A DNA stretch of 64,000 bases, from contig DATKWU010000017.1 of NCBI GenBank assembly GCA_035529375.1, positions 2,579 to 66,578 of the forward strand, in the 5' to 3' direction. The DNA comes from Patescibacteria group bacterium. Its GTDB lineage: Bacteria > Patescibacteriota > Microgenomatia > PFEM01 > JAHIFH01. Under the pieces are notes generated by a model. The model made no database searches, was not told where the DNA came from, and was given only the letters and a program-made list of their open reading frames with translations. Below are positions 17,874 to 35,105 of this stretch, piece by piece; position 1 is the first letter of the stretch, and each line of letters starts with the position of its first letter. Both the position numbers and the translations under genes were made by a program.

Positions 17874-17896
17874 ATGTCTATTGTATCACATTAAAT

Positions 17897-18600: not shown

Positions 18601-18987
18601 GTGTCTAAAGAAACCTGCTTGTTCTGCGATAGGAATAACCCAGAAAAACATACCATAATAAGTGAAAATGATTTGTTCTATGGAAGATGGGATAACTTCC
18701 CCGTCTCAGATGGGCATGCAGAAATTGTTCCCAAAAGACACGTTGAATCACTTTTCGAACTAACAGATAATGAGTTAGTTCAATTGTTTGATTTACTTAA
18801 AAAAGTAAAAGATATTATTCAAGATAAATACAGTCCTGATGCTTTTAATATTGGAATAAATGAAGGAGAAGAAGCGGGGAGAACTATTCACCATCTTCAT
18901 GTGCATATTATTCCAAGATATAAAGGTGACGTAGAAAACCCAAGAGGCGGTATAAGACACGTGATTTCAGGGAAAGGAAACTACTAA
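18601..18987 (+). CDS. HIT (histidine triad) family protein
   Basis: HHLHVHIIPR histidine triad. The start codon is GTG. Confidence 0.85.
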   Translation: MSKETCLFCDRNNPEKHTIISENDLFYGRWDNFPVSDGHAEIVPKRHVESLFELTDNELVQLFDLLKKVKDIIQDKYSPDAFNIGINEGEEAGRTIHHLHVHIIPRYKGDVENPRGGIRHVISGKGNY

Positions 18988-19095
18988 AAAGCCCTTTATT
19001 TCGGAATATTTTGATAGTGTGACCCCGAGGGGAGTTCAATTAAACACCTTGGAGTATGTAGTGAGGTTGAGGGAGGTGTTTCAAGTGAGTTCTGG
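18987..19095 (+). repeat. Copy 3 of the tRNA-Glu-end repeat
   Basis: aaagccctttatttcgg...gtgaccccgaggggagttcaattaaacaccttggagtatgtagtgaggttgagggaggtgtttcaa. Confidence 0.8.
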
Positions 19096-19132
19096 AGCCG
19101 AAGCCTTCTTTTTAGGTTAACAATAAAAACCA

Positions 19133-19669
19133 CTACTTTTTCGTGTTAAACCTACTTAGGATAGTATTTAATTCGGGTCTTAATAGGGCTATTGTATAAG
19201 CTCCCGTATGACCAGGAGACTTTACAAAGTAAATAGTTCTAACCTCTGCCTCACTGAAAAAAGGCCAAGGGAAGTCTCTTCTATTCCTTGTTAATATTAA
19301 AGAATTCGTTAATATTGATGTTGTGGCAATAATTATATCTCCCATATCAATATTACTCTTAAGCATTTTATCATTTCTGAACAAAGTGTATAGTTGAGCT
19401 GATCCAATCAAAACTTGTTCGCTAATGAAATATCTGTTGAAATTTTTAAGGAATTTAAATATCTCGTTTTCTTGTTTTTTGGTGGTATTCCTAAGTATTT
19501 CATGAACAGAAACATCTGAAATTGCCATCCCAAAGCCTCTCCTCATCAATTCAGTAATATATGCAATAAAACTAGTAGCGGTTGGCATTCTTCCGGTGTA
19601 TTGGAGGATGTTTGTATCTAAAATGACGAACTGATCTGGAAGTTTTGGTTGAGATGGCTTTTCATTCAT
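19133..19669 (-). CDS. PIN-domain (VapC-like) toxin
   Basis: FVILDTNIL at the N-terminus, then DIIIATTS and LTRNRRDF (conserved acidic residues). Confidence 0.65.
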   Translation of the reverse strand: MNEKPSQPKLPDQFVILDTNILQYTGRMPTATSFIAYITELMRRGFGMAISDVSVHEILRNTTKKQENEIFKFLKNFNRYFISEQVLIGSAQLYTLFRNDKMLKSNIDMGDIIIATTSILTNSLILTRNRRDFPWPFFSEAEVRTIYFVKSPGHTGAYTIALLRPELNTILSRFNTKK

Positions 19670-19898
19670 TTTGTTCTTGGTCAGGATGCTTGGGCTCTTG
19701 GGGTAAAGGAATTATTTCGTCTTCTACCGCTTTTTCCATTTCGCTAATAATTTCTTTAGATGGTGTTACCGTTCCACTACTCGGAATAGAAGTGCTATTT
19801 ATGTCTGTTTTCCCTTTTGGCGGAATAGAAATTGATGCCTCAGGGGGCTTTTCTGGAAATACTTTTTCGCCTTTTGGTTTTGGTTGTGTGTCGTCCAT
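19662..19898 (-). CDS. Putative cognate antitoxin (78 aa, Pro/Glu-rich)
   Basis: It lies immediately upstream of the PIN gene and overlaps it by 8 nt. It has no recognisable fold. Confidence 0.3.
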   Translation of the reverse strand: MDDTQPKPKGEKVFPEKPPEASISIPPKGKTDINSTSIPSSGTVTPSKEIISEMEKAVEDEIIPLPQEPKHPDQEQNE

Positions 19899-20037
19899 AA
19901 GTTAATTCTATCATAAATTAGTATAATTAGCCTGTGAAGTTGACCTTTAAGCAAAGACTGTTTATTGCGAATTATCTGAAGACTGGCAATGCTACTAAGG
20001 CAGCAGCCAGGGCCTACAATGTTAAAAGCAGGAACGT

Positions 20038-20070
20038 AGCTGGCGAGTATAGACGCTATTCGAACCTATT
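20038..20070 (+). repeat. Copy 1 (divergent) of the 32-nt cassette-boundary repeat
   Basis: tggcgagtatagacgctattcgaacctatt. Compare the copies at 21781 and 22861. Confidence 0.6.
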
Positions 20071-20483
20071 TAGTCAGTAATATTAGTTATTAATTTATCT
20101 ACTTTCCTTTTTATCAGAATAAAAATATTTTCTGAGAGTTTTAGGTATTCTATCTCCCTTTTTATGTCTAAGGGCTTCCCATTAAGATTAGCGTCATCAA
20201 AGTCAGGTAAATCCCAGATTTTATACTTCTTAGGGGTGGAAAGTTTGCTTCGGCAATACTCATAATTCTTTTTACCAATAAAAACAACAAGGTCAGCTTT
20301 TAAAAGTTGGTTATTGCTTGTTTCTTTCCATTCATTACTCATATAGGGAATTAATTTATTTCTGTTTGTCAATCGTTGGGCGTACCATGTTATCGGTCCC
20401 TTATGTTGGGCCGATGCTTGTGTACCACTGGAGGATACAAAGATACTAGGGATTTTTTTTAGAACGCAAATATGCTTCGGCAA
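20070..20483 (-). CDS. Hypothetical protein
   Basis: 137-aa ORF. The gene layout in this array is compact and codon usage is typical. Confidence 0.4.
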   Translation of the reverse strand: MPKHICVLKKIPSIFVSSSGTQASAQHKGPITWYAQRLTNRNKLIPYMSNEWKETSNNQLLKADLVVFIGKKNYEYCRSKLSTPKKYKIWDLPDFDDANLNGKPLDIKREIEYLKLSENIFILIKRKVDKLITNITD

Positions 20484-20571
20484 GCCTACTTCGGAATATA
20501 TTTCCCGTACAAACGAAGTGAATATGAAATGCTTTATTTTTCATAGGTTAAGTTTATAAGCTGAGCTCCTC

Positions 20572-20583
20572 GGTCTGGACCCG
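20572..20583 (+). repeat. Short repeat ggtctggacccg (copy 1)
   Basis: The same 12-mer recurs at 21173-21184 in the equivalent inter-cassette position. Confidence 0.4.
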
Positions 20584-20703
20584 TTTTATCCCGTAGCTAT
20601 TTCTTCTTTTTCTGGCTAGCTTTCGTACCATCAGAAAAGGTTGCTTCTAGCTTGGTAAAAACATTCGTAGGGTGCAAATCTCTTTGATCAAAAGCTAGTC
20701 TCT

Positions 20704-21126
20704 TTATGCCTGGCTCAACGAATATTTGTGTTTTTTTCTTTTCCCTTTTTCTCCGGCATATACGACGAGTCGTAAACCTACTTTTGATTTAGTCAGTAAA
20801 GAGGTAACAAAATATTTATTGTCTTTTGAGGATATTTTTTCCTCTGCTATTGGCAAAGCTTCATCGTCGAGATTGATAAATTTCATATTTTTATAAATTC
20901 TGGAGTTTAATTTTCTCTTTACATATTTTTTCTCATCATGATATTCCCTTGGAAGAGAGTAAATTTTTTTACACTCCTCGCACTTGAGTTTGTGTGTATA
21001 TATTTCTCCTTCTTCATAATAGGGTTCGAGTTGAAGAAAATCTTTTGGGCACAACGGCACGGGGTTTCGCGAAACCTTTCCGATAACCCATTTTATTTTG
21101 TCAATTATTATTCCTTGATCTGCCAT
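20704..21126 (-). CDS. Hypothetical protein with a CxxD...CEEC zinc-ribbon-like motif
   Basis: 140-aa ORF containing LCPKDF...KCEECKK. Confidence 0.4.
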   Translation of the reverse strand: MADQGIIIDKIKWVIGKVSRNPVPLCPKDFLQLEPYYEEGEIYTHKLKCEECKKIYSLPREYHDEKKYVKRKLNSRIYKNMKFINLDDEALPIAEEKISSKDNKYFVTSLLTKSKVGLRLVVYAGEKGKRKKHKYSLSQA

Positions 21127-21172
21127 TTATTAGTAAATAATAATTAATCTACCCGATTTTGCTGAACAGACT

Positions 21173-21184
21173 GGTCTGGACCCG
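21173..21184 (+). repeat. Short repeat ggtctggacccg (copy 2)
   Basis: Identical 12-mer. Confidence 0.4.
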
Positions 21185-21228
21185 CTTGGTTCCATAAGTT
21201 ACTTTTATTTTAGATTAGAATTGCTTTT

Positions 21229-21768
21229 CTACCCAAATCTAATAGCACCTTTATAGATATACCCTGGTTCGTGTATTTCTATTGTATTTTTCAATCTACC
21301 TTGAACTGCTAAGTTAGCTGACATAGAGTCTAGCCAAACTTCTACAGCTTTGCACACGTCCTTGCAAAAAACTTGAACATTCAGCTGCAAAAATGATTTT
21401 TTCTCACCGTTAAAAATGCAGTCCTTAATAAGATTACGGTGTGCACCTTTAGTCAAAAATACAAAATGCTCTAGAACCTCCTGTTTTTTTTGGTCGGAAA
21501 TATCATCCTTCCCTTGATGTAGAAGTGCACACCTCAAAGCATAGCAATCCTTGCCCGACAGAAAACCATTATATTGGGGTAAATTTTTTTCAACCCAATC
21601 AGAATATTTTTCACCTGAAGTTTTTTCGTGTTCAAGTGCAGCACAGATGTCTGGAAGGGTCAAAGAGACAAACAAAGCAACGTACCAGTTTTGGTTATCT
21701 AATGCTTTATAAACTGAATCAATAATTTTTTGCATATTTTTTTCTGAATTATGAGGGTAGGGTTGCAA
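21229..21768 (-). CDS. Hypothetical protein with an Rx4H motif (HEPN-like); paralog of the 23005-23547 product
   Basis: ALRCALLHQG fits Rx4H. The C-terminal FLQLNVQVFCKDVCKAVEVWL aligns with TLQLDMNLFCQDVLDSIDKLYEV of the paralog. Confidence 0.4.
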   Translation of the reverse strand: MQPYPHNSEKNMQKIIDSVYKALDNQNWYVALFVSLTLPDICAALEHEKTSGEKYSDWVEKNLPQYNGFLSGKDCYALRCALLHQGKDDISDQKKQEVLEHFVFLTKGAHRNLIKDCIFNGEKKSFLQLNVQVFCKDVCKAVEVWLDSMSANLAVQGRLKNTIEIHEPGYIYKGAIRFG

Positions 21769-21780
21769 GCCTACCCAATT

Positions 21781-21814
21781 TGGCTGGCGAGTGTGGACAC
21801 TATTCGAACCTATT
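21781..21814 (+). repeat. Copy 2 of the 32-nt cassette-boundary repeat
   Basis: tggctggcgagtgtggacactattcgaacctatt, followed by a conserved aagagaacctgtttttgttcc-like tail. Confidence 0.65.
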
Positions 21815-21864
21815 TTATCACAACAAGAGAACCTGTTTTTGTTCCTAATTTTAATTCTTAATTA

Positions 21865-22758
21865 TTATTGCTTAATTTTCGCGGCTACTTCGTTTTTATA
21901 TTGGAACTCTGGACAAAATGGAGGTATCAGATTTCTGTTTCGCATTAAATCTCTCATTCTCTTCATTACTTCAAAATCCGTATCAGAAGAAATCCAACGC
22001 TTCATTACTTCTTCATCCACCCAGAGTGTTTTTAGTTGATAAATGGAAGAATAATATTTTCTAAAAAAGTCTATGCCATTTTGGGGACTATCGAAAAAGA
22101 CAGTACAATATGAAGCAAAATACTCTTTGAAACCGTCAATTGTAAAGATGTTTCTTGCATAATAATATAGTTTGACTGTGTCAATATCGCTAAAATCTCC
22201 TTCAATCGGCTCACCATATTCATTCAACATGTCTGGGCTAATTAAAGGAACATCTGCAATATCCAGAGGAACAGCATGACCATCATTCGAAGCTATTTGA
22301 TATACTGCGCAGTTTTTTTCAACACTATCTAACAAGGCAAAACTTCGCGAAGGTAAAGCGGAACAGTTTGCAAAAACATAATTTAGATTTCCAATTTCTA
22401 AATCTAACTGACCAGACTGTTGTTTAAGTTCCTCTACAGGCTTACCCTGAATTGAGGCAAGGCAGATTGGACTATCAGGAACTACCTCTTCCCCCAATGG
22501 CTGTCTGGTTTTATGAACAATGTCATCAAATAAAGCAGAGTCGTAGTAATCACGGAATTCTCGTGCTTTTTTCTGAAAGTCTTCCTCAGTCTGACCTTGA
22601 CCTCGTTGAATATAAGCTTCACGAAGAACATCTACAGCCCTAGTTAAATTTTCCTGTAGTAGTCTTTGGGGCCTCTCAGCAACTTGCCGGACACTATCAC
22701 TTCGGATAAGTCTAGCTTGTTCTAGAATAGCATTTGTTTTTATCTCTTTATCATCCAT
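21865..22758 (-). CDS. Hypothetical protein (297 aa)
   Basis: Long ORF in the cassette-like array with no recognisable motif. Confidence 0.4.
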   Translation of the reverse strand: MDDKEIKTNAILEQARLIRSDSVRQVAERPQRLLQENLTRAVDVLREAYIQRGQGQTEEDFQKKAREFRDYYDSALFDDIVHKTRQPLGEEVVPDSPICLASIQGKPVEELKQQSGQLDLEIGNLNYVFANCSALPSRSFALLDSVEKNCAVYQIASNDGHAVPLDIADVPLISPDMLNEYGEPIEGDFSDIDTVKLYYYARNIFTIDGFKEYFASYCTVFFDSPQNGIDFFRKYYSSIYQLKTLWVDEEVMKRWISSDTDFEVMKRMRDLMRNRNLIPPFCPEFQYKNEVAAKIKQ

Positions 22759-22860
22759 TTCTCATATTTTACTCAAGTTGAAGAATTTTTTAAAGATTTT
22801 GTGAGGTTTAAAAGCTTCGAACCGTCCTACTTCGGTGGTAATTTTCAAGGCTAAAATTTT

Positions 22861-22894
22861 GGGCTGGCGAGTGTGGACACTATTCGAACCTATT
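22861..22894 (+). repeat. Copy 3 of the 32-nt cassette-boundary repeat
   Basis: gggctggcgagtgtggacactattcgaacctatt, followed by aagagccttgttttattccc. Confidence 0.65.
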
Positions 22895-23004
22895 GGTTAG
22901 GCAAGAAAGAGCCTTGTTTTATTCCCATCTATGCCTAATCCGAAAGGACTACTTGGTTTTACTGACAAATCGGTCTAGAATGTTTTAATCCTTATAACTA
23001 ACGT

Positions 23005-23547
23005 CTATTTTAATTCTTTAAAGAAATCAAAATCCGAAGCTTTAATATATTTCTTGTTTCTGTTAAGGATACTTGTCTTGTTTAGTGGAGTAGATTGTTG
23101 AGAAATCGCCTTAGCAAATTGTTCTTTATAAGATTCTGTCAACACTTCATAGAGCTTATCTATTGAATCAAGCACGTCTTGGCAAAAGAGATTCATATCT
23201 AATTGAAGTGTGCTGTCCACAAAATACAAGTGAAACTTCCTTTGTATATCTAGCGGATTATTTGTATGGGAAATGTTAAATATCCATCCAATATCTTTTT
23301 TCTTATACTTAAAGTTCTTAGGGAAGTGCTGATGTAGTAGTCCGTGTCGATAAACAAGCGTTATAAATACAGCATATTTAGCGTAACGAGGGTCGATTTT
23401 TGACAGAACTAATTTTAAATAGGTTGTAATATTTTCTGTAGTTGCGCGAGATTCGCCAGTTATAAAAGAACCAAGTCCATCAATTTCTGGGAATAGTAGT
23501 CTTGGAATCGCAAAAAATCCTGTCATGTTAGCAGAATACACTGGCAA
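23005..23547 (-). CDS. Hypothetical Rx4H-motif (HEPN-like) protein; paralog of the 21229-21768 product
   Basis: YRHGLLHQ fits Rx4H. The C-terminal region is shared with the paralog. Confidence 0.4.
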   Translation of the reverse strand: MPVYSANMTGFFAIPRLLFPEIDGLGSFITGESRATTENITTYLKLVLSKIDPRYAKYAVFITLVYRHGLLHQHFPKNFKYKKKDIGWIFNISHTNNPLDIQRKFHLYFVDSTLQLDMNLFCQDVLDSIDKLYEVLTESYKEQFAKAISQQSTPLNKTSILNRNKKYIKASDFDFFKELK

Positions 23548-23592
23548 TACAATTCCAACATCTTTCTCTATAGATTTTTTAATATTATCGAG

Positions 23593-23865
23593 ATGCTCTA
23601 TCCTCGTCCGCTCTCCACGGCCATCCTGGAAGTTGGGTTACCTTGGGTTTTCAGAGCGATATATGAAGGGAAAATGTCGGGATTAGTCATTGGTGTAATT
23701 TTCACCTTGGCGTCTGGCATCCCGGCACTTGTTTTTCTCTTCATGCTCCATGAGATGCAGGCAGGGCTATCTATGGCTTTCTTGTCCATAGGTATGGCTA
23801 TTTCCTGCATTGTGGGGACCTTAATAGACAGATGGGAAATCAAACAAGTCCTTGGACATCTGTAG
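23593..23865 (+). CDS. Small two-TM membrane protein (higher local GC)
   Basis: 90-aa hydrophobic ORF. It may be spurious. Confidence 0.25.
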   Translation: MLYPRPLSTAILEVGLPWVFRAIYEGKMSGLVIGVIFTLASGIPALVFLFMLHEMQAGLSMAFLSIGMAISCIVGTLIDRWEIKQVLGHL

Positions 23866-24041
23866 CGGTTTCAGCTATCTGGCTATCTCTACGATGGCAT
23901 AATAGACTCGCCACTATTGAGCCATCAGAACGAAGGTCCTAGATTAAGGAGGGACAAAACTATGCCTATTGGGTAGCGTTTTGTTCCTCCTAAACTCACT
24001 TTTTCCTTTCCACAAACCATCTCTGGGAATTTTACACAGAA

Positions 24042-24150
24042 AAAGCTCTCTATCTCTGGCTTTTTAGAATGTGTGACCCAGATGGGAGTTGAAACAAACA
24101 CTTTGGAGTATATAGTGAGGCTTCAGGAGATATTTCAGCCTGTGGACTCT
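24042..24150 (+). repeat. Copy 4 of the tRNA-Glu-end repeat (diverged)
   Basis: aaagctctctatctctggcttttt...gtgacccagatgggagttgaaacaaacactttggagtatatagtgaggcttcaggagatatttca. Confidence 0.7.
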
Positions 24151-24167
24151 GTGGTATACTATGGTCA

Positions 24168-25112
24168 ATGAAAATTGTGATTTTCAAACCTAAGTCGGGT
24201 TTTTCTCCAAAACAGCAAAAACAAATTGCCTCACTCGGCAAAGTTGTTTACACCAAAACAAACCAAGAACTTCCAATGAAAAAACTCCTAAAAATTGCTA
24301 AGGGTGCAGAAATCATTGGCGTTGACCCTGATCCCCTTGGTGGTTTTGAAAAGGCTAAAGAGAAGCTAACCAAAATAATGGAGTCTTTGCCCAAACTTAA
24401 GGGTGTCTGTCTTTCCACAACTTCTTTTGGCTGGATCGATTTAGATTATTGTAGTAAGCGGGGCATTACGGTTAGTAACGTTCCAGGCTATTCAAGAGAG
24501 TCTGTTGCTGAACACGCCTTAGCCCTATTGCTTTGTTTGGCTAAAGGAATTATTACCAGCGATCGGAAAACCCAAAGGGGAAAATACAAGCTAGAAATGG
24601 GTTTTGAACTAAAAGGAAAAACGCTTGGCATTATTGGTCTGGGTAATATTGGTAGCAGAATGGCCGAACTTGGCCAGGGAATAGGCATGAAAGTCATTGC
24701 TTATAATCGAAGTCCAAAGAAAATGAAGGGAGTCCAGATGAAATCTTTAAATGAATTATTAAAAAGATCAGATACAATTTCTCTGCACACCACACATGAG
24801 GAAAGTAATGATGAAATGGTTAATGAAAAAATGTTATCTAAAATGAAAGACTGTGTAATTATTGTGAATACAGTTGATAGAGAGATAGTTGATGAAAGCG
24901 CTATGGCAGAAGCCTTAAAGTCTGGAAAAGTCCGTGCCTATGCCTATGAGGGCGAAGATTTGACTCGTACACCTTTAGCTAAAATAGAAAACGCTATAGG
25001 GGTAAAGGCGTTTGCTTACTACACTAAAGAAGCGCTAGATAATTTATATGAAATTTGGGTTGGTAATCTTGTAGCCTTGCGTAAAAGTAAGCCTCGAAAC
25101 CTCGTAAGTTAA
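24168..25112 (+). CDS. D-isomer-specific 2-hydroxyacid dehydrogenase family (NAD-binding)
   Basis: Rossmann motif GIIGLGNIGSRMAELG plus a catalytic His/Glu region, 314 aa. Confidence 0.85.
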   Translation: MKIVIFKPKSGFSPKQQKQIASLGKVVYTKTNQELPMKKLLKIAKGAEIIGVDPDPLGGFEKAKEKLTKIMESLPKLKGVCLSTTSFGWIDLDYCSKRGITVSNVPGYSRESVAEHALALLLCLAKGIITSDRKTQRGKYKLEMGFELKGKTLGIIGLGNIGSRMAELGQGIGMKVIAYNRSPKKMKGVQMKSLNELLKRSDTISLHTTHEESNDEMVNEKMLSKMKDCVIIVNTVDREIVDESAMAEALKSGKVRAYAYEGEDLTRTPLAKIENAIGVKAFAYYTKEALDNLYEIWVGNLVALRKSKPRNLVS

Positions 25113-25131
25113 TTGGATCAATATCAATTGA

Positions 25132-25235
25132 AAAAAGTCCTCTATTTCGGTTTTTTTAGAATGTGTGACCCCAAGGGGAGTTCAATTAAACACTTTGAAA
25201 TATGTAATAATGGTTCAGGAGATATTTGAACCTCT
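25132..25235 (+). repeat. Copy 5 of the tRNA-Glu-end repeat
   Basis: aaaagtcctctatttcgg...gtgaccccaaggggagttcaattaaacactttgaaatatgtaataatggttcaggagatatttgaa. Confidence 0.75.
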
Positions 25236-25308
25236 AACTATTTATCAGTCGGTTTGTGCTTTTAAATGAGCATCATAGTTCTTTTGTAGTTATGTTAATA
25301 TAAAGTCA

Positions 25309-26112
25309 ATGGAGATAACGTTTTTAGGCACTGGTGGTGGTACAAACGAAGAAAGATTTAAAACTTGTATTTTTTTACCTCTTAATGAGAAGAACAATTT
25401 AATTTTGGACGTAGGTGGCGGAACCGAAATAATTAACCAATTCGCCAAGGCCAAGATTAATCCTGCTTGTGTAAATCACATTTTTATTAGTCATACTCAT
25501 TTTGACCACTGTTTAGGTTTGCCCGCCTTTTTGTTTTATCTTGTGACCGAAAAGAAAGAAGAAATGCCAGGAAAAATGGGGATTTACTCTAACAAAAGAA
25601 TAATCAGTGATTTAAAAGAAGTTTTGAGAATTACTGGGGCTGGCGCACTTAAGCGTTGGGGAGATAGATTAATCTGGATTGATACAGGATTAGAAAAACC
25701 AGTTAGAATAACAAGAGATTGCAGTTTGCTTGCCTTCCCTGCCAAAGGAGGGCAAGAATTGAAAGAACAAGATTTAAGCTGTTTAATTAAACTTTCTCGC
25801 CTCCAAAAATCCATTCTTTTTACAGGTGATACTACCCCAAATGAGTATTTAGAAAAATATGCTCGAGGTGTTGATACATTGATTCACGAAGCAATTCTTA
25901 CCCATAAAAATGTCGAGCTTGCTCATAGGCATGGTCATTCTACATCTCAAGATGCAGGTAAACTTGCTCAACAAGCAGGAGTAAAACAGTTAGTGTTAAC
26001 CCATATCTATCGGGAAAGTATTGTTAAAGAAAAATCTCTTCTTGAGGAGACTATGAAATATTATTCAGGACCTGTTCAACTAGCTCATGACTTTGAAACA
26101 ATTAATATTTAA
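25309..26112 (+). CDS. MBL-fold metallo-hydrolase (RNase Z / beta-lactamase-like)
   Basis: ISHTHFDHCLGLP motif, 267 aa. Confidence 0.75.
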   Translation: MEITFLGTGGGTNEERFKTCIFLPLNEKNNLILDVGGGTEIINQFAKAKINPACVNHIFISHTHFDHCLGLPAFLFYLVTEKKEEMPGKMGIYSNKRIISDLKEVLRITGAGALKRWGDRLIWIDTGLEKPVRITRDCSLLAFPAKGGQELKEQDLSCLIKLSRLQKSILFTGDTTPNEYLEKYARGVDTLIHEAILTHKNVELAHRHGHSTSQDAGKLAQQAGVKQLVLTHIYRESIVKEKSLLEETMKYYSGPVQLAHDFETINI

Positions 26113-26145
26113 AAAAGCCCTTTATTTCGGGCTTTTTGGAATGTG
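26112..26145 (+). repeat. Copy 6 of the hairpin module, fused directly to the genuine tRNA-Glu gene
   Basis: aaagccctttatttcgggcttttt ggaatgtgt runs straight into the tRNA 3' end. Confidence 0.75.
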
Positions 26146-26218
26146 TGACCCCGAGGGGAATCGAACCCCTGTTTTCAGGATGAAAACCTGACGTCCTAGA
26201 CCGCTAGACGACGGGGCC
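26146..26218 (-). tRNA. tRNA-Glu (anticodon UUC); CCA not encoded
   Basis: The reverse complement GGCCCCGTCGTCTAGCGGTCTAGGACGTCAGGTTTTCATCCTGAAAACAGGGGTTCGATTCCCCTCGGGGTCA folds as a cloverleaf with acceptor, D, anticodon (loop TTTTCAT) and T (TTCGATT) arms. Confidence 0.85.
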
Positions 26219-26230
26219 TGGTGAGCCCAA
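26215..26230 (+). repeat. 16-bp direct repeat ggcctggtgagcccaa (left copy, includes the first 4 nt of tRNA-Glu)
   Basis: An identical 16-mer recurs at 28365-28380. Confidence 0.6.
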
Positions 26231-26485
26231 GAGGGACTCCTACGAACACTTTTACCCTTATCTTCTAACTCTTTATCGTGGCTTTAATTATATCACAAAG
26301 GTTTATTCTTATCATATTGTCTAAGAAACCAAAAAATAAGAGATAGTATGAATGGAATCATTACTACTAAAACTTTATTCAATTGATTCAGAAAAATTGC
26401 CATCATTGAACAATGATAGTAACTTTTTTTAGTTTAAGGCAAATTAAATTTTTGCTAGTTCGTGATAAAATAAGGACAAAGTAAG

Positions 26486-27121
26486 ATGCCAAATAAGAAA
26501 GCGCCTGATCTCACTAAACGAACTAAACCACTTTTTGCCTTCTTTGATGTAGAAAACGTTCGAAACAGTGTAGAGGAATATGGATATATTGACCTTAACT
26601 ATCCTAAAATTATTGGCTGGTTGAAAAATAAAAGAAGTGTTAGTCGGATTTATCTCTATGCATCTGCAGAACCAGGAGATACAATTAAAAAGAAAAAGTA
26701 TTTAGATTTGCAGAAGATTCCTGGTTGTTATGTGTCCATTAAAAGGATTATGGCCTACAAGCAAAAACCATGGCCCCTCGAGACAATTTGCCCAAGTTGT
26801 CAACATTCATTTGTAAGAAAAATTTACATAAAAGATCACAAAAAGGGAAACTGCGATGCGGAGATGACTTTAGATATTGTTAGGTTTGGAGTTAGGAAAA
26901 AATATAGTGGAATTATTGTCTTTTCTGGTGACGGTGATTTTGCAAGAGTTTACGAATATGTTGCGGAAGAATTAAAAAAGCCCGTTATTCTTTTTGCACC
27001 AGATAAGGTGCCAGGTAAAAAAAGAACATCGTCGAGACTAAAGAAACTAGCGAATAACGGGACAATCAAACTAGAAAGCTTAAAGGGGTTGATGTTTCAT
27101 TATGGACAGAAAGAAGAATAA
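26486..27121 (+). CDS. NYN-domain (LabA/PIN-like) RNase family protein with an inserted CxxC...HxxxxxC zinc motif
   Basis: FFDVENV...YASAEPGD...GNCDAEMTLDIV...IIVFSGDGDF are the acidic residues typical of the NYN family. Confidence 0.65.
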   Translation: MPNKKAPDLTKRTKPLFAFFDVENVRNSVEEYGYIDLNYPKIIGWLKNKRSVSRIYLYASAEPGDTIKKKKYLDLQKIPGCYVSIKRIMAYKQKPWPLETICPSCQHSFVRKIYIKDHKKGNCDAEMTLDIVRFGVRKKYSGIIVFSGDGDFARVYEYVAEELKKPVILFAPDKVPGKKRTSSRLKKLANNGTIKLESLKGLMFHYGQKEE

Positions 27122-27280
27122 AAAAAGCCCCCCGAAGGCGACTTTTTTGATTGAGTGGATATACTTTATCACATTAAACTATCTTTGTCAACCTTATACC
27201 ACCTTATATTATCTTATCATATTTTGTGTTAGTTTAAATTGTATTAATGTCGTAAAAGTGCTAGAATTGGTTTCAAACAT

Positions 27281-27856
27281 ATGCCTCGAGAAATCATTTT
27301 CAGGTTAATGCCAGCCAATCTGAAGAGAAAACTAGAAAACTACCTTAATAAACCCTCAACTTCACGTCTCGAAGCCAGAAATAAACTTATTGTCAGTCTT
27401 TTTTATTATTGCGGTTTTAGAACATGGATGCTAACAGATCTAAAAAAGAAAAACTACGACCCAAAAAATAAAATGCTTTATTTTCGTCTTCGAACAAATT
27501 CTCTCAAAGAGAATAGTATACTTCTAGACGAATCTGTTTTTAAACTGATAGATTTTTTAACTAGATCATTTTCGAATCCAGAGTGGCCATTAATTATGAG
27601 TTTTAAAATTGATAGCCCGATAAATAAGCCACTATCTCCTCGCCAGATCCAAAGGGTTACCAAAAATATTTTGTTATCACTTGGTTTTAAAAAAAATATT
27701 CCACCAAGAATGTTGAGGCATAATGTTGGTATTAACTTAACCAAGGAAAAACTAAGACATAAATCGTTAAATAAATTAATTGGCAGAGTTTCTCCTTGGG
27801 TTTTTACAGAATACAAAAAAAGAGCGGGTAACTTTAAGAAAGTTGGGAAAATTTAA
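27281..27856 (+). CDS. Short tyrosine recombinase-like protein (catalytic domain only; no N-terminal core-binding domain)
   Basis: EARNKLIVSLFYYCGFRTWML resembles the box I Arg region. PRMLRHNVG resembles HxLRH. IGRVSPWVFTEY resembles LGHxxxxxTxxYTH with the Tyr. The product is only 191 aa. Confidence 0.5.
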   Translation: MPREIIFRLMPANLKRKLENYLNKPSTSRLEARNKLIVSLFYYCGFRTWMLTDLKKKNYDPKNKMLYFRLRTNSLKENSILLDESVFKLIDFLTRSFSNPEWPLIMSFKIDSPINKPLSPRQIQRVTKNILLSLGFKKNIPPRMLRHNVGINLTKEKLRHKSLNKLIGRVSPWVFTEYKKRAGNFKKVGKI

Positions 27857-28093
27857 AATTTAGAATTATTGGCTTATTGCCAATATTATTCAAAAAAAAG
27901 AGTAACTGTGTTCGATATTTGACGAAAAATTACATTGGGTAGGTTTTCATTATCGAACACTTAAATTAAATGAAATTTTTGAAGCGTTTAGGGCTGTAGA
28001 TAGGACTATTCAGAAGAAACCTTTTTCACAATTATCCACAGAAATAGTAAGATGTAAACCTGTCAGTAATCAGTTCGCACCAATTATTAAGCT

Positions 28094-28324
28094 TTATTGC
28101 TTTATACCACTGTCTATTACAACATCGCCTGTGTCTTCGTCAATATGACCCATAACTATTTCATATTCGCTATGCTCTACTATCCATTTAGCTCCTGGTG
28201 CTAATTCAGATAATTCAGGTGGAATACCCATTTCTTCTAGTTCTCTAGCATTTTGTTCAGCGCTAATTCTAGCAATTTCTCCTGTTGATTCCTCCGATGA
28301 CGTTGGTTTTATTGTTTCTGACAA
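28094..28324 (-). CDS. Hypothetical acidic protein (76 aa)
   Basis: ORF with no recognisable motif. Confidence 0.3.
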   Translation of the reverse strand: MSETIKPTSSEESTGEIARISAEQNARELEEMGIPPELSELAPGAKWIVEHSEYEIVMGHIDEDTGDVVIDSGIKQ

Positions 28325-28364
28325 TTTTATTCACCCCCTGTCAATTTTTCTTAATTCGCTTTTA

Positions 28365-28380
28365 GGCCTGGTGAGCCCAA
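28365..28380 (+). repeat. 16-bp direct repeat ggcctggtgagcccaa (right copy)
   Basis: Identical to 26215-26230. Confidence 0.6.
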
Positions 28381-28478
28381 CGTCCCGTGGGTGGAACACC
28401 TCTTCTCCAGTATTTTCAACACCTACGAGAAACTAAAAGAATTGGGCTTTACTTATTATAACGGAAAAGTCTCCGTAA

Positions 28479-29740: not shown

Positions 29741-29843
29741 AAAATCTCACCCCCAATCAAAACTGTAACTCTTAATTGTTTTAGAGAATGTTTACGCGAT
29801 TATTTTATCTTAACGTTAGTAAATAAGCAAAAGTCAATGTTCA

Positions 29844-30455
29844 TTAACTTCCTCCCAAAAACACCCTCGGATTGACTGGTATGCCAAAGACGTTGATTTG
29901 AAAGTGCAAATGCGGTCCGGTTGCCCAACCGGTGCTGTCCTCGGTGCCGATGACATCGCCTGGTTTGACTTCCTGGCCCACTTCGACCCAGATGGTCTCC
30001 AAATGGGCGTAGATGGAAGCGAGATTATCGCCGTGATCGATGATGATGTGCTTGCCAAAACCCCAAGAGATTTGACCCGCGTAAACAACGGTTCCGGGCA
30101 TGAACGGGGTGATGAGGTCGCCTTTTTTGCCTTCGGGATTGGCAATGTCAATGCCGGTATGGAAAAGCTGCCAGCGGCTCGATTCGCCGAACTCGAGGGT
30201 AATGATTCCCGTCACCGGCCAGACGAAGGGGCCTTTGATGGTTTTGTAGACGCTGCCGTCAAACGGGTTTAAGATTTGAACCTCATTGGTGACTTCATTA
30301 ATCGCCACCAATCGTTCGGAAACAAAATCCAAACCCGTCCGGGTGAGAATGATCACCCCGATAAGGGGCATCAAGATGACCAGAAGAAAAGCCAGGAGGA
30401 CATAGAAGAACTCCTTTTTAAAAGAAAAAAAGGTCATTATTAAAAAGGGATTCAT
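29844..30455 (-). CDS. M23 family (LytM-like) peptidoglycan endopeptidase with an N-terminal TM anchor
   Basis: HTGIDIA...GTVVYAG...HLHFQ are the M23 motifs. It is the last gene of the T4SS operon. Confidence 0.85.
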   Translation of the reverse strand: MNPFLIMTFFSFKKEFFYVLLAFLLVILMPLIGVIILTRTGLDFVSERLVAINEVTNEVQILNPFDGSVYKTIKGPFVWPVTGIITLEFGESSRWQLFHTGIDIANPEGKKGDLITPFMPGTVVYAGQISWGFGKHIIIDHGDNLASIYAHLETIWVEVGQEVKPGDVIGTEDSTGWATGPHLHFQINVFGIPVNPRVFLGGS

Positions 30456-32212
30456 CGCAGGGAGTATCTTTCGGCCGGATCGGTCGTAATCAGGGGATGT
30501 TCTTTTTCCGAGGCAACCACTTTCAGGGCCACATGGTTTTGGTCGGCAATGACAATCGCCTCGCCCTTATCGCAGGTGAGCAGGAATTTCTGCTCGTATT
30601 CGCTTAGCTTGAACTCTTCGACCACTTTTTTAATGGTGGTCGTGTCCTGGCGCATTAGAATCCGCAGCGAGGCCTGGGAGGCAATCGCCTGACCGTATTC
30701 GTTGCCCAGGAAGTCGTTGGCCGCCTGGGAGATGATGTTGACACCCAGGTAGTATTTGCGCGCCCTTCTGGTCAAGCCGGCAATAAAGCGGGCGCTTTCC
30801 TCATGCTCCAAAAGAATCCAGGCCTCATCAATCACCAAGAGCCGTTTCTGGGGATTGGATTTGACCTGGTTGTAGACATAATTGGAAATGATCAGAATCA
30901 TGATTTGGCGCAGGGATTCGGGCAGGTCTTTGATATCAAAGACGATCAAGCGGTTGTCGAGCTTGATATTGGTTTGCTGGTTGAAGACATGAGCCAGCGA
31001 TCCCTTGACGTATTTCTCCAGCCGGACGCAGAGTTTTCTCTGCCGGTCTTTTTTCAAGGTTTGGTATAGGTCTTTCATCAACGGGTATCTTTGACCTTTT
31101 TTCCGGCCGTGGATTGCCCAGCCAAGGTTTTTGTAAGTTTTGACAATCGCTTTGTCAACAATCGCTTTTTCTTCCGAAGTCAAGCCTTCCACCATTAAGG
31201 AAACGATTTCCGTCAAATCCTGGATGTGCTCGACCAGGTTGTTGCCCTGGCCAAAGGAGCTGACTGAGAAGTCGAAAGGGTTGATTTTTTCCTTGGATTT
31301 GGCCGAGAGTTTGATGTAGGTGCCCTCTAAAGAGCGGGCAAGCTGCTGGTATTCCCGCTCCGGGTCAATGACGATCACTTTCGTCTTTTGAATCAGCTGG
31401 CGCAGGATTTCCACTTTGGCCGCGTAGCTTTTGCCGCAGCCGGATTGGGCAAAGACGATACTGTTGGCGTTATTGAGGCTGAAGCGGTCAATCATCACCA
31501 AGGAATTGTTGGAAAGATTGACCCCATACAAAATGCCGGTTTCCTGGACCAGTTCGGAGGAAGTAAAAGGAAAGGTTAAGGCCGTTGAGGAGCTGTCCAA
31601 ATTCCTTTTTTGGTCAAGGAGATTTTCCGCCCGGGGCAGGATGGATTGGAGGCCTTCAAGCTGCTGGAAAACCGCTGTTTTGGTGTAGAACAATCTCGTC
31701 GCCAGAACCGTCTCCGCCAGGGTGGTCAGCTTTTCCAATTCAACCAAAGAGTCGGCCGTCAGGTGGATATAGATGGAGACTTGGAAGAGCTTTTCCTGGC
31801 CCCGCAGGATTCTGTTTTTTAAATCAACCGCCGATTTTAAGGGGTCAAGCACTTCCGGGCCGATGATTTTTCCCTGCTGTTGGAGGACCCTTCGGGTTGA
31901 CTCCAATTCGGTAATCTTTCGATTAAGCTTGGGCAGGGAGATTTTCGAATCGATCTGTTCCAGGTGGTAAGCAATGTCGATGTCGTGGTTGAAATTAACC
32001 AGATTGTTCAGCCAGCCGGTAGTCGCCACGTAAGGATAACCGGAGACGAAGAGGGTCCGCAGGTATTTGCCGCCCAGATTGAGATAGTTTTGGTATTCCT
32101 TGAGGCCGTCATACGAGATTAAATCCACCTGGTCCTGTTCGCCGAACGAGAGCTCGATCGTTTTGAGACCTCGCTTTTTGTTTTTCTTAAAGTTTGGGAG
32201 TTTGAATAACAT
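30452..32212 (-). CDS. VirB4/TrbE/CagE-family conjugal transfer ATPase (ATPase portion)
   Basis: Walker A FAQSGCGKSYAAK and Walker B LLVIDEAW. The N-terminal YLRTLFVSGYPYVATTGWLNNL is typical of Gram-positive VirB4-like proteins. Confidence 0.8.
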   Translation of the reverse strand: MLFKLPNFKKNKKRGLKTIELSFGEQDQVDLISYDGLKEYQNYLNLGGKYLRTLFVSGYPYVATTGWLNNLVNFNHDIDIAYHLEQIDSKISLPKLNRKITELESTRRVLQQQGKIIGPEVLDPLKSAVDLKNRILRGQEKLFQVSIYIHLTADSLVELEKLTTLAETVLATRLFYTKTAVFQQLEGLQSILPRAENLLDQKRNLDSSSTALTFPFTSSELVQETGILYGVNLSNNSLVMIDRFSLNNANSIVFAQSGCGKSYAAKVEILRQLIQKTKVIVIDPEREYQQLARSLEGTYIKLSAKSKEKINPFDFSVSSFGQGNNLVEHIQDLTEIVSLMVEGLTSEEKAIVDKAIVKTYKNLGWAIHGRKKGQRYPLMKDLYQTLKKDRQRKLCVRLEKYVKGSLAHVFNQQTNIKLDNRLIVFDIKDLPESLRQIMILIISNYVYNQVKSNPQKRLLVIDEAWILLEHEESARFIAGLTRRARKYYLGVNIISQAANDFLGNEYGQAIASQASLRILMRQDTTTIKKVVEEFKLSEYEQKFLLTCDKGEAIVIADQNHVALKVVASEKEHPLITTDPAERYSLR

Positions 32213-32747
32213 CTTTGTTTTTAGATAAAAGCTGATAGGTTTTTTCTTTGATGGGCTGGGTTTTACAGACCCCGGGATTGTAAAAACTGTAAAAAAGCTC
32301 GAGAATTTCCAGGGTGTTGAGGCTTCTGGTTTTCATCCCCAGCCGCTCCAAGCCTTTGCTGATAATGTCCAGGCTGAGATTGATTTGTTCTTTAACCAAA
32401 TTGAAGTCGTTTTTTTCCGGTTCCGGCTCGTAGGGAATCACCAGGTAGAAGCGCCGGGAAAGGATTTTACTGCCCTTGACTAATTGCTTGACAAACTGGC
32501 CATAGTGCTTGATCTGCTGGCGGTAAAGCTTGTTGGTTTCGTGATTGTTTTTGTTGTTGAAAACCTCAAGATAGTTGTCAATCTCCACTTCGCGGACCCG
32601 AATCAAAATCTGGATGGGGCAAGGCAGGGCGTTGATGAAATTTTGGAAATTGTCAATCAAGGCGTCTTGCTCGGCCTCGCTTTTGAGCTCAAAGTTAATC
32701 GCCGAGGTTTCGACCACCACCCGATATTTATTTTCCGGCAGAACCAA
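32187..32747 (-). CDS. Putative N-terminal segment of VirB4, overlapping the downstream VirB4 ORF by 26 nt
   Basis: 186 + 586 aa is about 770 aa, a normal VirB4 length. The two ORFs overlap in different frames. Confidence 0.45.
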   Translation of the reverse strand: MVLPENKYRVVVETSAINFELKSEAEQDALIDNFQNFINALPCPIQILIRVREVEIDNYLEVFNNKNNHETNKLYRQQIKHYGQFVKQLVKGSKILSRRFYLVIPYEPEPEKNDFNLVKEQINLSLDIISKGLERLGMKTRSLNTLEILELFYSFYNPGVCKTQPIKEKTYQLLSKNKDVIQTPKL

Positions 32748-32803
32748 AATCCCGTCTCGGACTTCCTTGATTTTAATCTGTCTCCGGGAAGAGACTTTAT
32801 TGT

Positions 32804-33304
32804 TTAAAAGCGGTTTAATCTGAGCCTCCTTTTTTGACCGAACTTAATTAACATTTCGGTATTCCTGGCGTTAATCAGGTTTTCCAATTGAATCAAATTC
32901 AAAACTGATAAATGATTCTTTTTTTCTTTTTTGGCTGGGATTTGTTTATTGTTGACGGCGTTTTTGACTTCATTGTCCGGCTGGGGTTCTTCCTCCCGCA
33001 GATAATCATCGTTCTTGTCGAAGACAAAGAGATGGGGTCTCAAATAGTAAGCGACCAGTAAAATCAGCCAGTTTAAGACAATTCGTTCCTTGACCCTGAT
33101 GGCCAGGGTGAGGAAGATAACCAGGGAAAGAGCGATAAGAATAATCTTGTAAGGATTAAAGTACATCCTCTCCGGCAGAACGGCAAAAACAAAGACGCTG
33201 ATAAAAAGTGGGGCCAAAAGCAGGATTAGCTGGGTCAGGCTCAGGTTGGCGGCGATTTTATCCTCAACCGTGGTCACTTGAGCCGGGATGGGGGTCGTTT
33301 TCAT
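32804..33304 (-). CDS. Small two-TM membrane protein, VirB3-like by position
   Basis: 166 aa with two adjacent hydrophobic helices, lying between the VirB6-like and VirB4 genes. Confidence 0.35.
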   Translation of the reverse strand: MKTTPIPAQVTTVEDKIAANLSLTQLILLLAPLFISVFVFAVLPERMYFNPYKIILIALSLVIFLTLAIRVKERIVLNWLILLVAYYLRPHLFVFDKNDDYLREEEPQPDNEVKNAVNNKQIPAKKEKKNHLSVLNLIQLENLINARNTEMLIKFGQKRRLRLNRF

Positions 33305-34587
33305 GCGTTGACCACCTTTCTGGGCGTTTTAACTTGGGCTTCGCCGAGGACGGTCTCTTCGGTTTGTTTGGCCTGGAGAACATTGACAATCTGGCCGCCG
33401 ACTTTTTTAAGGACCGCCCGGCCGGTGTTGTAAAAAACCAGCTGGTAAACGACGGATTGGGTTTTGATTAAGGTAAACATCAGGCCAATACCGATTAAGA
33501 CCGCCATCAGGCCCGAGCCTTCCGATTCGCCTGGCAGGGTCAAAAAAGAGGCTGCCAGTTGGATGATCACCACATGGATAAAAACGGAAAAGATGGTGGT
33601 GAGATAGCTTTTAATGGCGATTTCGGAAAAATCAGCCAGTCTGGGAATCGCCCAGAGCATAAAGATTAAAGGCGAAAGGACCGCCCCCAGGGCAATGATA
33701 ATTAGTCGACTGATGTAAAAAAGGAGCAAAACAACGGTGGTGATAATGAAAAGAACGCCGAAAACCAGGGTGATTACCAAGACGCTTTCTAGGGTCATTA
33801 CCGGTGGGTTAAAGGCGTTTTCAATCCAGGCCTGGTTCAAGCCGCCGGTGGCATTGAGAACGGCCGAGACCAGGGCGTTGTTGCAGCGCAGCACCCAGTC
33901 CACCATGAAGATGGAGACATTGGCCAAGAGGAAAGCTAGAAGAATTCGAGGGAGCAGTTTTTTCAGTTCCACCTCTTCAAAACCGAAAGTGGTGGCGCTC
34001 ATGAGCTGAAAGCCGAGCAGGATAATTACCAGGACAAAGAGCGAATCGGTGATCCCCAAAATTATCAGCCAAAAGTTAAAAATGGAATGATTGGTCGCCA
34101 CTAAAGGAGTGGTGGTTAAAAAAGAAATGACGCTGTCGGTCAAGGGCTTGGTGGCGCTCTGGATGATATTCTTCAAAAAGCCGGCAATCGCCTCGGTCAA
34201 AACCTGGGTCAGGCCGTCTTCGGGCTCGACCGTTTCCAGAGGCGCCAGTTCGATTTGACTGGTCTCGGTGCCCGGTGAAGGCGTGGTGAAGGAAGTCGTC
34301 AGGATTGAAGAAAAAGTACTGGCCGAGAGAATTAAAACCAAACCAATGAGGGCATTCCTAATGGTTATTTTAGCGTCTTCTAAGGCTTCCGGATTGCCGC
34401 TGGAGGTGAGATACAGATAAGCGCCGCGGATTAAGAAAAAAAGGACAAAAACCGAAGCCAGGATGGAAAGGTTGGCGATCAGGTCGCTGGTAAAAGACTG
34501 GATTTCAGGATACTGGTCAAGAGCCAAGGCCAAAGGAGGATTGAGAAGGAAGATTAAGGCAGTCAATAAAACTGCTAGGACAACCAT
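33301..34587 (-). CDS. Polytopic membrane protein with an N-terminal pilin-like (VirB2-like) domain fused to a VirB6/TrbL-like multi-TM region
   Basis: The N-terminal IRGAYLYLTSSGNPEALEDAKITIRNALIGLVLIL aligns with GGVGYITSTGNPENLEKSKKTIFYSAIGLAVTL of the upstream pilin. Six or more TM helices follow. Confidence 0.5.
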   Translation of the reverse strand: MVVLAVLLTALIFLLNPPLALALDQYPEIQSFTSDLIANLSILASVFVLFFLIRGAYLYLTSSGNPEALEDAKITIRNALIGLVLILSASTFSSILTTSFTTPSPGTETSQIELAPLETVEPEDGLTQVLTEAIAGFLKNIIQSATKPLTDSVISFLTTTPLVATNHSIFNFWLIILGITDSLFVLVIILLGFQLMSATTFGFEEVELKKLLPRILLAFLLANVSIFMVDWVLRCNNALVSAVLNATGGLNQAWIENAFNPPVMTLESVLVITLVFGVLFIITTVVLLLFYISRLIIIALGAVLSPLIFMLWAIPRLADFSEIAIKSYLTTIFSVFIHVVIIQLAASFLTLPGESEGSGLMAVLIGIGLMFTLIKTQSVVYQLVFYNTGRAVLKKVGGQIVNVLQAKQTEETVLGEAQVKTPRKVVNA

Positions 34588-34604
34588 TGTTTTTAACTGT
34601 TAAT

Positions 34605-34931
34605 TTATTGACCAAAGGCGCTTTGCGCCGTCTGGGTGACAATATTAACCAGAACATAAGCTCCCAAGGTAACGGCCAAGCCGATCGCCGAATAAAAAAT
34701 CGTCTTTTTTGATTTTTCCAAATTCTCAGGGTTACCGGTGCTGGTAATGTAACCGACCCCGCCCCAGACAAAGAAAAGAGCGGCCAGGATCCCGGCCAGA
34801 GTGACCAAGATTTCGATAATGTTGGTCATGAAATTTTGGACTTTGGAAACGTCGTCAGCTTGGGCCTGAACTTGGGAAGCAAAAATTAAAGCAGTTAAAA
34901 CGAAAGATTGCAGCGTCAACAAGATTCTCAT
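34605..34931 (-). CDS. T4SS pilin-like protein (VirB2/TrbC-like)
   Basis: Signal peptide, two TM helices and a conserved TSTGNPENLEKSKKT loop. RBS aaaggaggtg. The ORF in the track starts at GTG 34934. Confidence 0.5.
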   Translation of the reverse strand: MRILLTLQSFVLTALIFASQVQAQADDVSKVQNFMTNIIEILVTLAGILAALFFVWGGVGYITSTGNPENLEKSKKTIFYSAIGLAVTLGAYVLVNIVTQTAQSAFGQ

Positions 34932-35105
34932 CACTCACCTCCTTTACTAATAGGCAGGCGATAAATAAAAAAACTGCCCTCTCGGGCAGCCAAACGCTGA
35001 ACTCTAACTATTTAGCTTATAGCAAATTGTAAAGTAAAAGTCAAATTTCACTCCAATTGAGTAAAAAACTCTTTTGGGGTAAAATACGAAGTATGAGGGG
35101 CTTTT

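Follow-up and report, generated by a model that had tools for sequence, protein, structure and literature searches.

We analysed a 64-kb stretch of contig DATKWU010000017.1 from a Patescibacteria metagenome-assembled genome (this whole stretch, 64,000 nucleotides (nt) long, is called the window, and positions refer to it). On the 5′ side of a tRNA-Glu(UUC) gene it contains a segment of 2150 base pairs (bp), hereafter the unit, which is bounded by perfect 16-bp direct repeats and encodes a tyrosine recombinase of 191 amino acids (aa). At about even odds (a probability of roughly 0.5), we consider that this segment is a mini-element with a recombinase of its own, related as one family to the gene cassettes stacked on the 3′ side of the same tRNA gene, and that it integrated at a secondary, acceptor-end-like site on the tRNA 5′ boundary. 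Integration at the 16-mer, activity of the enzyme and its action on the cassettes are what we infer from the repeat, the gene content, the predicted fold, the resemblance between sites and the contexts of relatives of the enzyme; the status of element is probable, and present mobility is unproven.

The 16-mer GGCCTGGTGAGCCCAA is present in two plus-strand copies without any mismatch between them, the starts of which are 2150 bp apart (Table 1). No third copy was found on either strand of the window with up to 2 mismatches allowed, and the repeat had 0 occurrences in 100 dinucleotide-preserving shuffles of the window. Copy 1 is made of the first four bases of tRNA-Glu (GGCC) and of 12 nt of the 5′ leader. 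An earlier note on this DNA, made from its letters alone, had described the perfect repeats and the four tRNA bases in copy 1, and both the window scan and ARAGORN agree with it; its concern that the 16-mer might be common is answered, within the 64 kb, by a count of exactly two copies. As in tRNA-targeting islands, an integrase gene lies between the repeats. Local alignment of the flanks around the two 16-mers gave, against shuffles, p=0.06 on the right and p=0.78 on the left, and extended homology of the repeat flanks was rejected as not significant. Unrelated flanks would fit attL and attR junctions, with their P and B arms, better than a segmental duplication.

To its left, the tRNA-Glu 3′ end anchors a cassette array. 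Read on the plus strand, each of its repeats consists of a hairpin terminator, then AGAATGT-GTGACCCCGAGGGGA, i.e. the tRNA-Glu T-stem/acceptor 3′ strand with the trailer, in complement, and then a conserved arm of ∼65 nt (GTTCAATTAAACACTTTGGAGTATG...). Mostly single genes are found between the repeats (MazG, HIT, 2-hydroxyacid dehydrogenase and an Apyc1-like metallo-beta-lactamase (MBL) hydrolase), and the array also encloses a 5-kb block of minus-strand genes that has its own three-copy repeat. The members of this second repeat family (core GCTGGCGAGTGTGGACACTATTCGAACCTATT; 19979-20114, 21724-21857 and 22811-22938) lie between minus-strand genes of unknown function. The layout of the array is what successive site-specific integrations at the tRNA 3′ end would be expected to give, and it may be that the array outweighs the unit as the main feature of the locus. 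RNAalifold, applied to the five array repeats in either strand, returned weak helices and no compensatory pairs, so that a conserved RNA structure is unsupported; a 29-mer of the array repeat had 0 matches in viral contigs.

The link between the unit and the array comes from their sites. When window positions were ranked with a position weight matrix (PWM) of the five array repeats, copy 1 together with its unit-side arm came 8th of 127,904, preceded only by the five repeats, the tRNA and one other site; copy 2 came 88th. When the ends of the unit are joined to reconstruct attP, nhmmer aligns the product gap-free to positions 48-90 of the repeat model, and when ungapped identity was counted over 43 positions against the array consensus TTTTAGAATGTGTGACCCCGAGGGGAGTTCAATTAAACACTTT, attP came closest, ahead of attR and attL as they stand and of the reconstructed empty site, attB (Table 1). 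Of 2.56 million positions in block-shuffled controls, 2 reached an identity of at least 27. Within the array site, the counterpart of the 16-mer in the alignment is the trailer with the acceptor 3′ strand, and GAACAC is found at +13 in both arms to the right of the 16-mers. Because of the resemblance of attP to the array, of this alignment of the 16-mer and of the common GAACAC offset, the unit appears to share its site grammar and layout with the array cassettes (site arm, genes, short T-rich stretch, site) and to differ from them by encoding a recombinase.

The earlier note had proposed a Phage_integrase profile search for the 191-aa protein: PF00589 matches residues 18-169 with 41.6 bits (E=1.5e-10), above its gathering cut-off of 27.1 bits. 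Since the alignment starts at profile position 8, i.e. protein residue 18, and the stop-to-stop frame adds only 11 codons upstream of the ATG, there is no room for an N-terminal core-binding domain; members of the clade described below align from residue 1, and the absence of this domain had been rightly suspected before. An AlphaFold2 model was obtained with a predicted local distance difference test score of 71 and a predicted template modelling (TM) score of 0.71, its C-terminal part being of low confidence. Foldseek placed XerA (5hxy; E=6e-7, TM 0.63) at the top, followed by the catalytic domains of XerH, XerD, IntI and Cre; as modelled, the protein has the tyrosine-recombinase catalytic-domain fold. 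Family alignments point to R47, K76 (probable), R143 (for the first His), R146, R169 (for His/Trp) and Y178 as the active-site set, i.e. R-K-R-R-R-Y and not the R-K-H-R-H-Y anticipated earlier, Arg standing at 143 and 169 where His and His/Trp were expected. The nucleophile Tyr (Y178), on which the earlier note had made its reading depend, is present and conserved in the clade alignment.

A word-indexed search among 5.8 billion proteins gave 4 matches to this recombinase, and when 1.84 billion cluster representatives were searched exhaustively with a profile, about 14 clusters of short proteins (182-291 aa) without N-terminal domain came out ahead of ordinary Xer-like proteins of ∼300 aa. Judging from these matches, it belongs to a very rare catalytic-domain-only clade. 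R146, H147 and the Tyr are conserved in the 14-cluster alignment, and several members carry a Cys-rich C-terminal extension of 50-100 aa. Curated models put the protein far under the XerA/integron-integrase, XerC/D and FimB/E-type invertase cut-offs. It is the sole tyrosine recombinase detectable in a six-frame translation of the window. As to a phage or plasmid origin, which was rejected, no phage match was found, and plasmid matches were weak, at the level of Xer/FimB.

Homologues of the recombinase are nearly all found on contigs of 1-6 kb, and their neighbour genes differ at every locus, as expected for variable regions; no accessory genes common to the homologue loci were found. At one locus (L008), which has a homologue 45% identical, the recombinase gene and a hairpin are succeeded by 15 nt that exactly repeat the tRNA-Glu(CUC) 3′ end; a GIY-YIG gene comes next, alone, and then the tRNA. 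On sequence grounds, this is a cassette of one gene at tRNA-Glu, and the recombinase forms the unit adjoining it. At another (L013), a homologue 28% identical (249 aa, P0158) lies in a 3.08-kb unit between perfect 48-nt direct repeats, the identity of which stops within the 6-nt spacer of a 13-6-13 palindromic core, CTGTCTTAAGAAT-GCGGGG-ATTCTTAGGTCAG; such a break inside the spacer is characteristic of a point of strand exchange. At that locus, the left repeat is followed by a second copy of 74% similarity. The clade appears to be tied to cassettes at tRNA-Glu as well as to small units that are bounded by repeats and hold the recombinase gene. Where this gene lies with respect to the tRNA varies: here it is on the 5′ side and reads away from the tRNA, and in L008 it is on the 3′ side and reads toward it.

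In the mechanism that we propose, a circular form would have carried attP, ...CGCTTTTA-GGCCTGGTGAGCCCAA-GAGGGACTCCTACGAACACTTT..., and the 191-aa recombinase would have exchanged strands within the 16 bp of identity with a chromosomal attB, ...GACGACGG-GGCCTGGTGAGCCCAA-CGTCCCGTGGGTGGAACAC..., a site that would span the junction of the tRNA-Glu leader with position +1 and resemble the tRNA acceptor 3′ end (TGGGCTC-A-CCA on the tRNA strand). The tRNA would have been left intact with a new upstream region, the old one now reading into the small acidic open reading frame (ORF) at the other end of the unit. The same enzyme would insert and excise recombinase-less cassettes at the tRNA-Glu 3′ end in trans; because it is the only tyrosine recombinase in the window, it probably does also service the array. 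Both of these roles had been put forward as alternatives in the earlier note. Its small integrative element, or remnant of one, at the tRNA 5′ side is favoured by the unrelated flanks, by the likeness of attP to the array and by the relatives in repeat-flanked units, although no genome without the segment was found. Its recombinase servicing the adjacent array draws indirect support from the lack of any other tyrosine recombinase in the 64 kb and from the homologue beside a tRNA-Glu cassette in L008. The two readings are not mutually exclusive.

Several observations weigh against integration of the unit as proposed. The first concern the site. Elements that target tRNA genes normally use the tRNA 3′ segment; the array does so, as does L008, but the repeat of the unit is not a 3′ segment and overlaps the tRNA 5′ end by 4 nt. 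Taken alone, the nhmmer score of the reconstructed attP is not significant (4.3 bits, E=2.5). Canonical inverted binding arms around the 16-mer were not found, the best pair (8/11) being ordinary for random windows. A core site with such arms, at the 16-mer or at the array core, was rejected, as its scores were at the random-window level, and the alignment of the 16-mers with their flanks, suggested earlier as a way to define recombinase-binding arms, gave only unrelated flanks and no canonical inverted pair. We also considered, and rejected, that upstream of the 16-mers there might be a hidden gene for a tRNA or tRNA-like RNA with the end ...TGGGCTCACCA: ARAGORN run on the window, the empty site and the circle junction gave tRNA-Glu alone, Rfam at E≤10 gave nothing for a hidden tRNA, and the folds did not surpass those of shuffles. 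Other observations concern gene content and the enzyme. There is no excisionase-like gene. The only consensus promoter upstream of tRNA-Glu falls inside the unit, so that an inserted element would have to supply the promoter of the tRNA; this is possible, given that, on the tRNA strand, a TATAAT box precedes both copies by ∼70-80 nt. Finally, the catalytic set is non-canonical, His-I and His-II/Trp both being Arg, and Arg-I is itself Lys in 10 and Gln in 1 of the 14 clade clusters; activity of the enzyme is a prediction.

The search for variants of the locus also failed to provide the decisive junctions. The contig recurs in JGI, ENA, NCBI and Logan assemblies; its source samples are JGI 3300031566, SRR8554512, SRR8554643 and ENA ERZ27256827. 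All public contigs with the exact NYN, recombinase, MBL or phospholipase D (PLD) proteins share the same arrangement, with no empty site, circle junction or second insertion, a negative weakened by the fact that these contigs may come from few samples; the genomes lacking the 2.2-kb segment that the earlier note had wished to see were not among them. Degenerate attL/attR/attB/attP patterns had 0 matches in metagenome and viral collections, which is weak evidence as the source lineage is absent there, and recombinase-based locus searches of genome, metagenome and viral collections gave no relatives, the lineage again being absent from the scannable DNA collections. A tRNA-Glu anticodon-arm pattern found 15 loci in species genomes, 14 of them annotated to other groups (mostly Planctomycetota), and in the sole Patescibacteria locus (Uhrbacteria) the leader is unrelated. 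One Logan contig (L006, 2234 bp) corresponds exactly to positions 26145-28378: it begins at the tRNA 3′ boundary and stops directly behind the GTGAGCCC of copy 2, 2 nt short of the end of this copy; another (L002) ends at 26174, which is a k-1 overlap with position 26145. These ends are compatible with k=31 graph branches due to population variants, both in the cassette next to the tRNA and where the unit ends on the right, but a single-nucleotide polymorphism or a drop in coverage would yield identical ends. As an observation apart, the tRNA-Lys 3′ end (52434-52443) reads GTGAGCCC followed by GG, and a hypothetical junction with tRNA-Lys would read ...GTGAGCCCGGAAGGAATCG. The window has two tRNA genes, for Glu and for Lys, each on the minus strand; they share the trailer ACACATT (26140-26146 and 52427-52433), and neither encodes CCA.

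Among other explanations, the one that survives best, though we hold it to be distinctly less probable than an integrated element, is that the recombinase is a resident enzyme, comparable to an integron integrase, in the fixed service of the tRNA-Glu array. The 2.15-kb block would then be ordinary chromosome, and the 16-bp repeat an old scar of secondary-site recombination with no present role. Proximity speaks for it, since 1.06 kb separates this sole tyrosine recombinase of the 64 kb from the tRNA on which the array is anchored, and so do the identical arrangement in every public contig, the predicted tRNA promoter within the block and the L008 homologue, which likewise adjoins a tRNA-Glu cassette. 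However, the recombinase is placed differently with respect to the tRNA at this locus and in L008, the L013 homologue is itself within a repeat-flanked unit, and a mere scar does not predict that the joined ends of the block should give the best array-like site.

Another possibility, which we regard as improbable, is a duplication of the tRNA promoter and leader: the region upstream of tRNA-Glu (promoter and ∼75-nt leader) would exist in two diverged copies, and the 16-mers would be their conserved cores, kept as a functional processing or start site. It is true that on the tRNA strand a TATAAT box, with AAAGCC after it, lies ∼70-80 nt upstream of both copies, that GTGTTC is found 13 nt upstream of both, and that copy 2 precedes the acidic ORF as copy 1 precedes the tRNA. 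But the similarity of the flanks is not significant (p=0.06), the putative leader folds no better than shuffles (z=-1.7 and +0.9) and there is no Rfam family match. A perfect 16-mer within flanks of random-level similarity would moreover require strong selection, including on 4 nt of mature tRNA, and yet no tRNA follows copy 2.

A phase switch of the FimB/FimE type, in which a catalytic-domain-only recombinase inverts a nearby promoter segment and no DNA is integrated, is more improbable still. FimB and FimE are the best architectural match to our protein, being of ∼190-200 aa (∼200 aa without N-terminal domain) and reduced to the catalytic domain; fimB (26% identity) and the model for tyrosine-type DNA invertases (E=1.5e-7) are matched weakly, and a perfect 10-bp inverted repeat follows the recombinase gene. 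This inverted repeat, however, encloses 33 nt, too little for an inversion, and neither another notable inverted pair around a promoter-sized segment nor an invertible promoter segment is seen. With ∼26% identity the protein is far under the family cut-off (NCBIfam NF007370, 31.3 bits versus 221), and the significant repeats, here as in L008 and L013, are direct. The least credible proposal, a transposon target-site duplication or a chance repeat, could invoke a direct repeat around a gene-carrying segment and is effectively refuted by gene content and shuffles: there is no transposase domain and there are no terminal inverted repeats, 16 bp far exceeds usual target duplications, and the shuffles exclude chance.

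How does the locus compare with known systems? Islands that grow by addition at a tRNA gene through tyrosine-recombinase elements have been described, e.g. the Prochlorococcus tycheposons (10.1101/2020.12.28.424599). As in tycheposons, successive units are set apart by partial copies of the tRNA 3′ end, units with and without recombinase lie side by side, and the cargo consists of small accessory genes. Unlike in tycheposons, most units consist of one gene (0.5-1.1 kb), and the repeat module of ∼120 nt combines a hairpin, the tRNA 3′ end and a conserved arm of 65 nt; the recombinase lacks a core-binding domain, and there are no genes for replication or packaging; the unit that carries the recombinase is on the tRNA 5′ side, and its repeat shares 4 nt with the tRNA. 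The likeness to integrons lies in the array of single-ORF, mostly promoter-less-looking cassettes in one orientation, each followed by a repeat of ∼60-140 nt resembling a recombination site, and in the single tyrosine recombinase that adjoins it; cassettes are here separated by five such repeats and the tRNA copy. In contrast to integrons, the anchor is a tRNA gene and not attI, the recombinase is not divergently oriented at the array head, its score with the XerA/integron-integrase model NF040815 is 47.4 bits for a cut-off of 220 and it has no N-terminal domain, and an attC-like conserved hairpin was not recovered from the five array repeats.

Xer-type simple recombinases (XerA, XerH, XerC/D) are nearest in sequence and in the fold of the catalytic domain, and the site of the L013 relative is, like dif, a 13-6-13 palindrome. 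Simple tyrosine recombinases consist of a core-binding and a catalytic domain (PMC8138268), whereas the 191-aa protein has the latter only, with the catalytic His replaced by Arg, and its locus is not one of chromosome-dimer resolution.

Table 1. Coordinates and sites at the tRNA-Glu locus and in two loci of homologues (window positions unless a locus is named)
Feature	Position	Strand	Remarks
Direct repeat copy 1 (GGCCTGGTGAGCCCAA)	26215-26230	+	Proposed attL-type junction; left, tRNA side; right, unit side
Direct repeat copy 2 (GGCCTGGTGAGCCCAA)	28365-28380	+	Proposed attR-type junction; left, unit side; right, chromosomal side
Unit-side arm at copy 1 (GAGGGACTCCTACGAACACTTTT)	26231-26253	+	Colinear with conserved arm of array repeat; AACACTTT at same offset (PWM; ungapped alignment to array consensus)
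Chromosome-side arm at copy 2 (CGTCCCGTGGGTGGAACAC)	28381-28399	+	Unlike copy 1 arm except for GAACAC at same +13 offset
attL, as it stands			32-mer GACGACGGGGCCTGGTGAGCCCAAGAGGGACT; 22/43 identical to array consensus
attR, as it stands			32-mer CGCTTTTAGGCCTGGTGAGCCCAACGTCCCGT; 23/43 identical to array consensus
attP, reconstructed			Junction 32-mer CGCTTTTAGGCCTGGTGAGCCCAAGAGGGACT; 27/43 identical to array consensus
attB (empty site), reconstructed			Junction 32-mer GACGACGGGGCCTGGTGAGCCCAACGTCCCGT; 18/43 identical to array consensus
tRNA-Glu(UUC)	26145-26218	-	ARAGORN; Rfam RF00005, 63.5 bits
Cassette array, 3′ side of tRNA-Glu	17877-26165	+	Five ∼120-nt direct repeats and partial copy at tRNA 3′ end
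Array repeats	17877-17998, 18417-18543, 18966-19090, 24019-24141, 25112-25233	+	nhmmer E 1e-33 to 1e-36
Partial sixth array copy	26103-26165		tRNA 3′ end and terminator; nhmmer E=1.4e-15
Sigma-70-like promoter, ATGATA-17-TATAAT with TG extension	26287-26315	-	Faces tRNA-Glu, within unit; consensus pattern match only
NYN-domain protein, 211 aa	26486-27121	+	PF01936, E=3.2e-15; identical call in public assemblies
G+C-rich hairpin between A and T runs	27127-27139		3′ of NYN gene; terminator-like both ways
Tyrosine recombinase, 191 aa, catalytic domain only	27281-27856	+	PF00589; Foldseek; family alignments
Perfect 10-bp inverted repeat GTGTTCGATA / TATCGAACAC, 33-nt loop	27908-27960		Between recombinase and acidic ORF; contains CGAACAC
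Acidic ORF, 76 aa	28094-28324	-	18 acidic and 5 basic residues; called in public assemblies
Logan contig ends	28378; 26145		...CGCTTTTAGGCCTGGTGAGCCC; GTGACCCCGAGGGGAATCGAACC
L008, 15-nt repeat of tRNA-Glu(CUC) 3′ end	910-924, 1283-1297		Flanks single GIY-YIG nuclease gene
L013, 48-nt direct repeat	820-867, 3900-3947		Unit also holds HATPase/DUF4325 protein and 194-aa ORF

The content of the unit, an NYN protein, a 191-aa recombinase domain and a small acidic ORF, is as the earlier note had described it, according to Pfam and the translations. Family-model searches of the translation of the 76-aa acidic ORF gave no assignment. The inverted repeat between the recombinase gene and this ORF could be a protein-binding site or a terminator; the CGAACAC that it contains occurs in 4 copies in the window, 3 of which are within the unit, and one adjoins copy 1 (13 nt from the repeat). 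At 31.5%, the G+C content of the 27-28 kb bin is the minimum of the window. Searching the unit with the array-repeat model gave no further copies except a weak, terminator-driven match at 27120-27157 (E=0.87), located directly past the NYN terminator, with ATTAAAC after it. This match may mark the decayed boundary of a cassette, in which case the unit would consist of what were once two cassettes, one for NYN and one for the recombinase.

To the right of the unit come a PLD-like nuclease, a helix-turn-helix protein, an M23 peptidase and a type IV secretion-like block. This block (29800-35000; M23 peptidase, VirB4-like ATPase, TraC-like and pilin/TrbL-like proteins) has a G+C content of 45-50%, to be compared with 35-40% around it, and may be a separate acquired element adjoining the unit. 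Farther away, a 92-nt direct repeat of 77% identity is found at 45314-45405 and 46092-46183, 778 bp apart.

The genomes of Patescibacteria (also called CPR, for candidate phyla radiation) are tiny, and the route by which they gain accessory genes is poorly understood. We may speculate, with more doubt than for the unit itself, that the locus represents a tRNA-Glu-anchored, integron-like mode of gene capture in these bacteria. Single-gene cassettes bearing a ∼120-nt tRNA-3′-end module would be stacked by an undescribed clade of catalytic-domain-only recombinases, mostly with Lys at Arg-I, and the recombinase gene would itself be a mobile cassette able to settle on either side of the tRNA. Our literature search on such a system in Patescibacteria found nothing relevant. 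As a kind of system, tRNA-anchored additive islands built by tyrosine recombinases are already known; what look new here are the minimal recombinase clade, the one-gene cassette module, the 5′-side location and the Patescibacteria host. If the enzyme does not move cassettes, then the locus is the ordinary remnant of a decayed island. If it does, then this would be among the smallest self-contained gene-capture systems known, and it would offer a biochemical test case for a recombinase that has no core-binding domain and an altered catalytic set.

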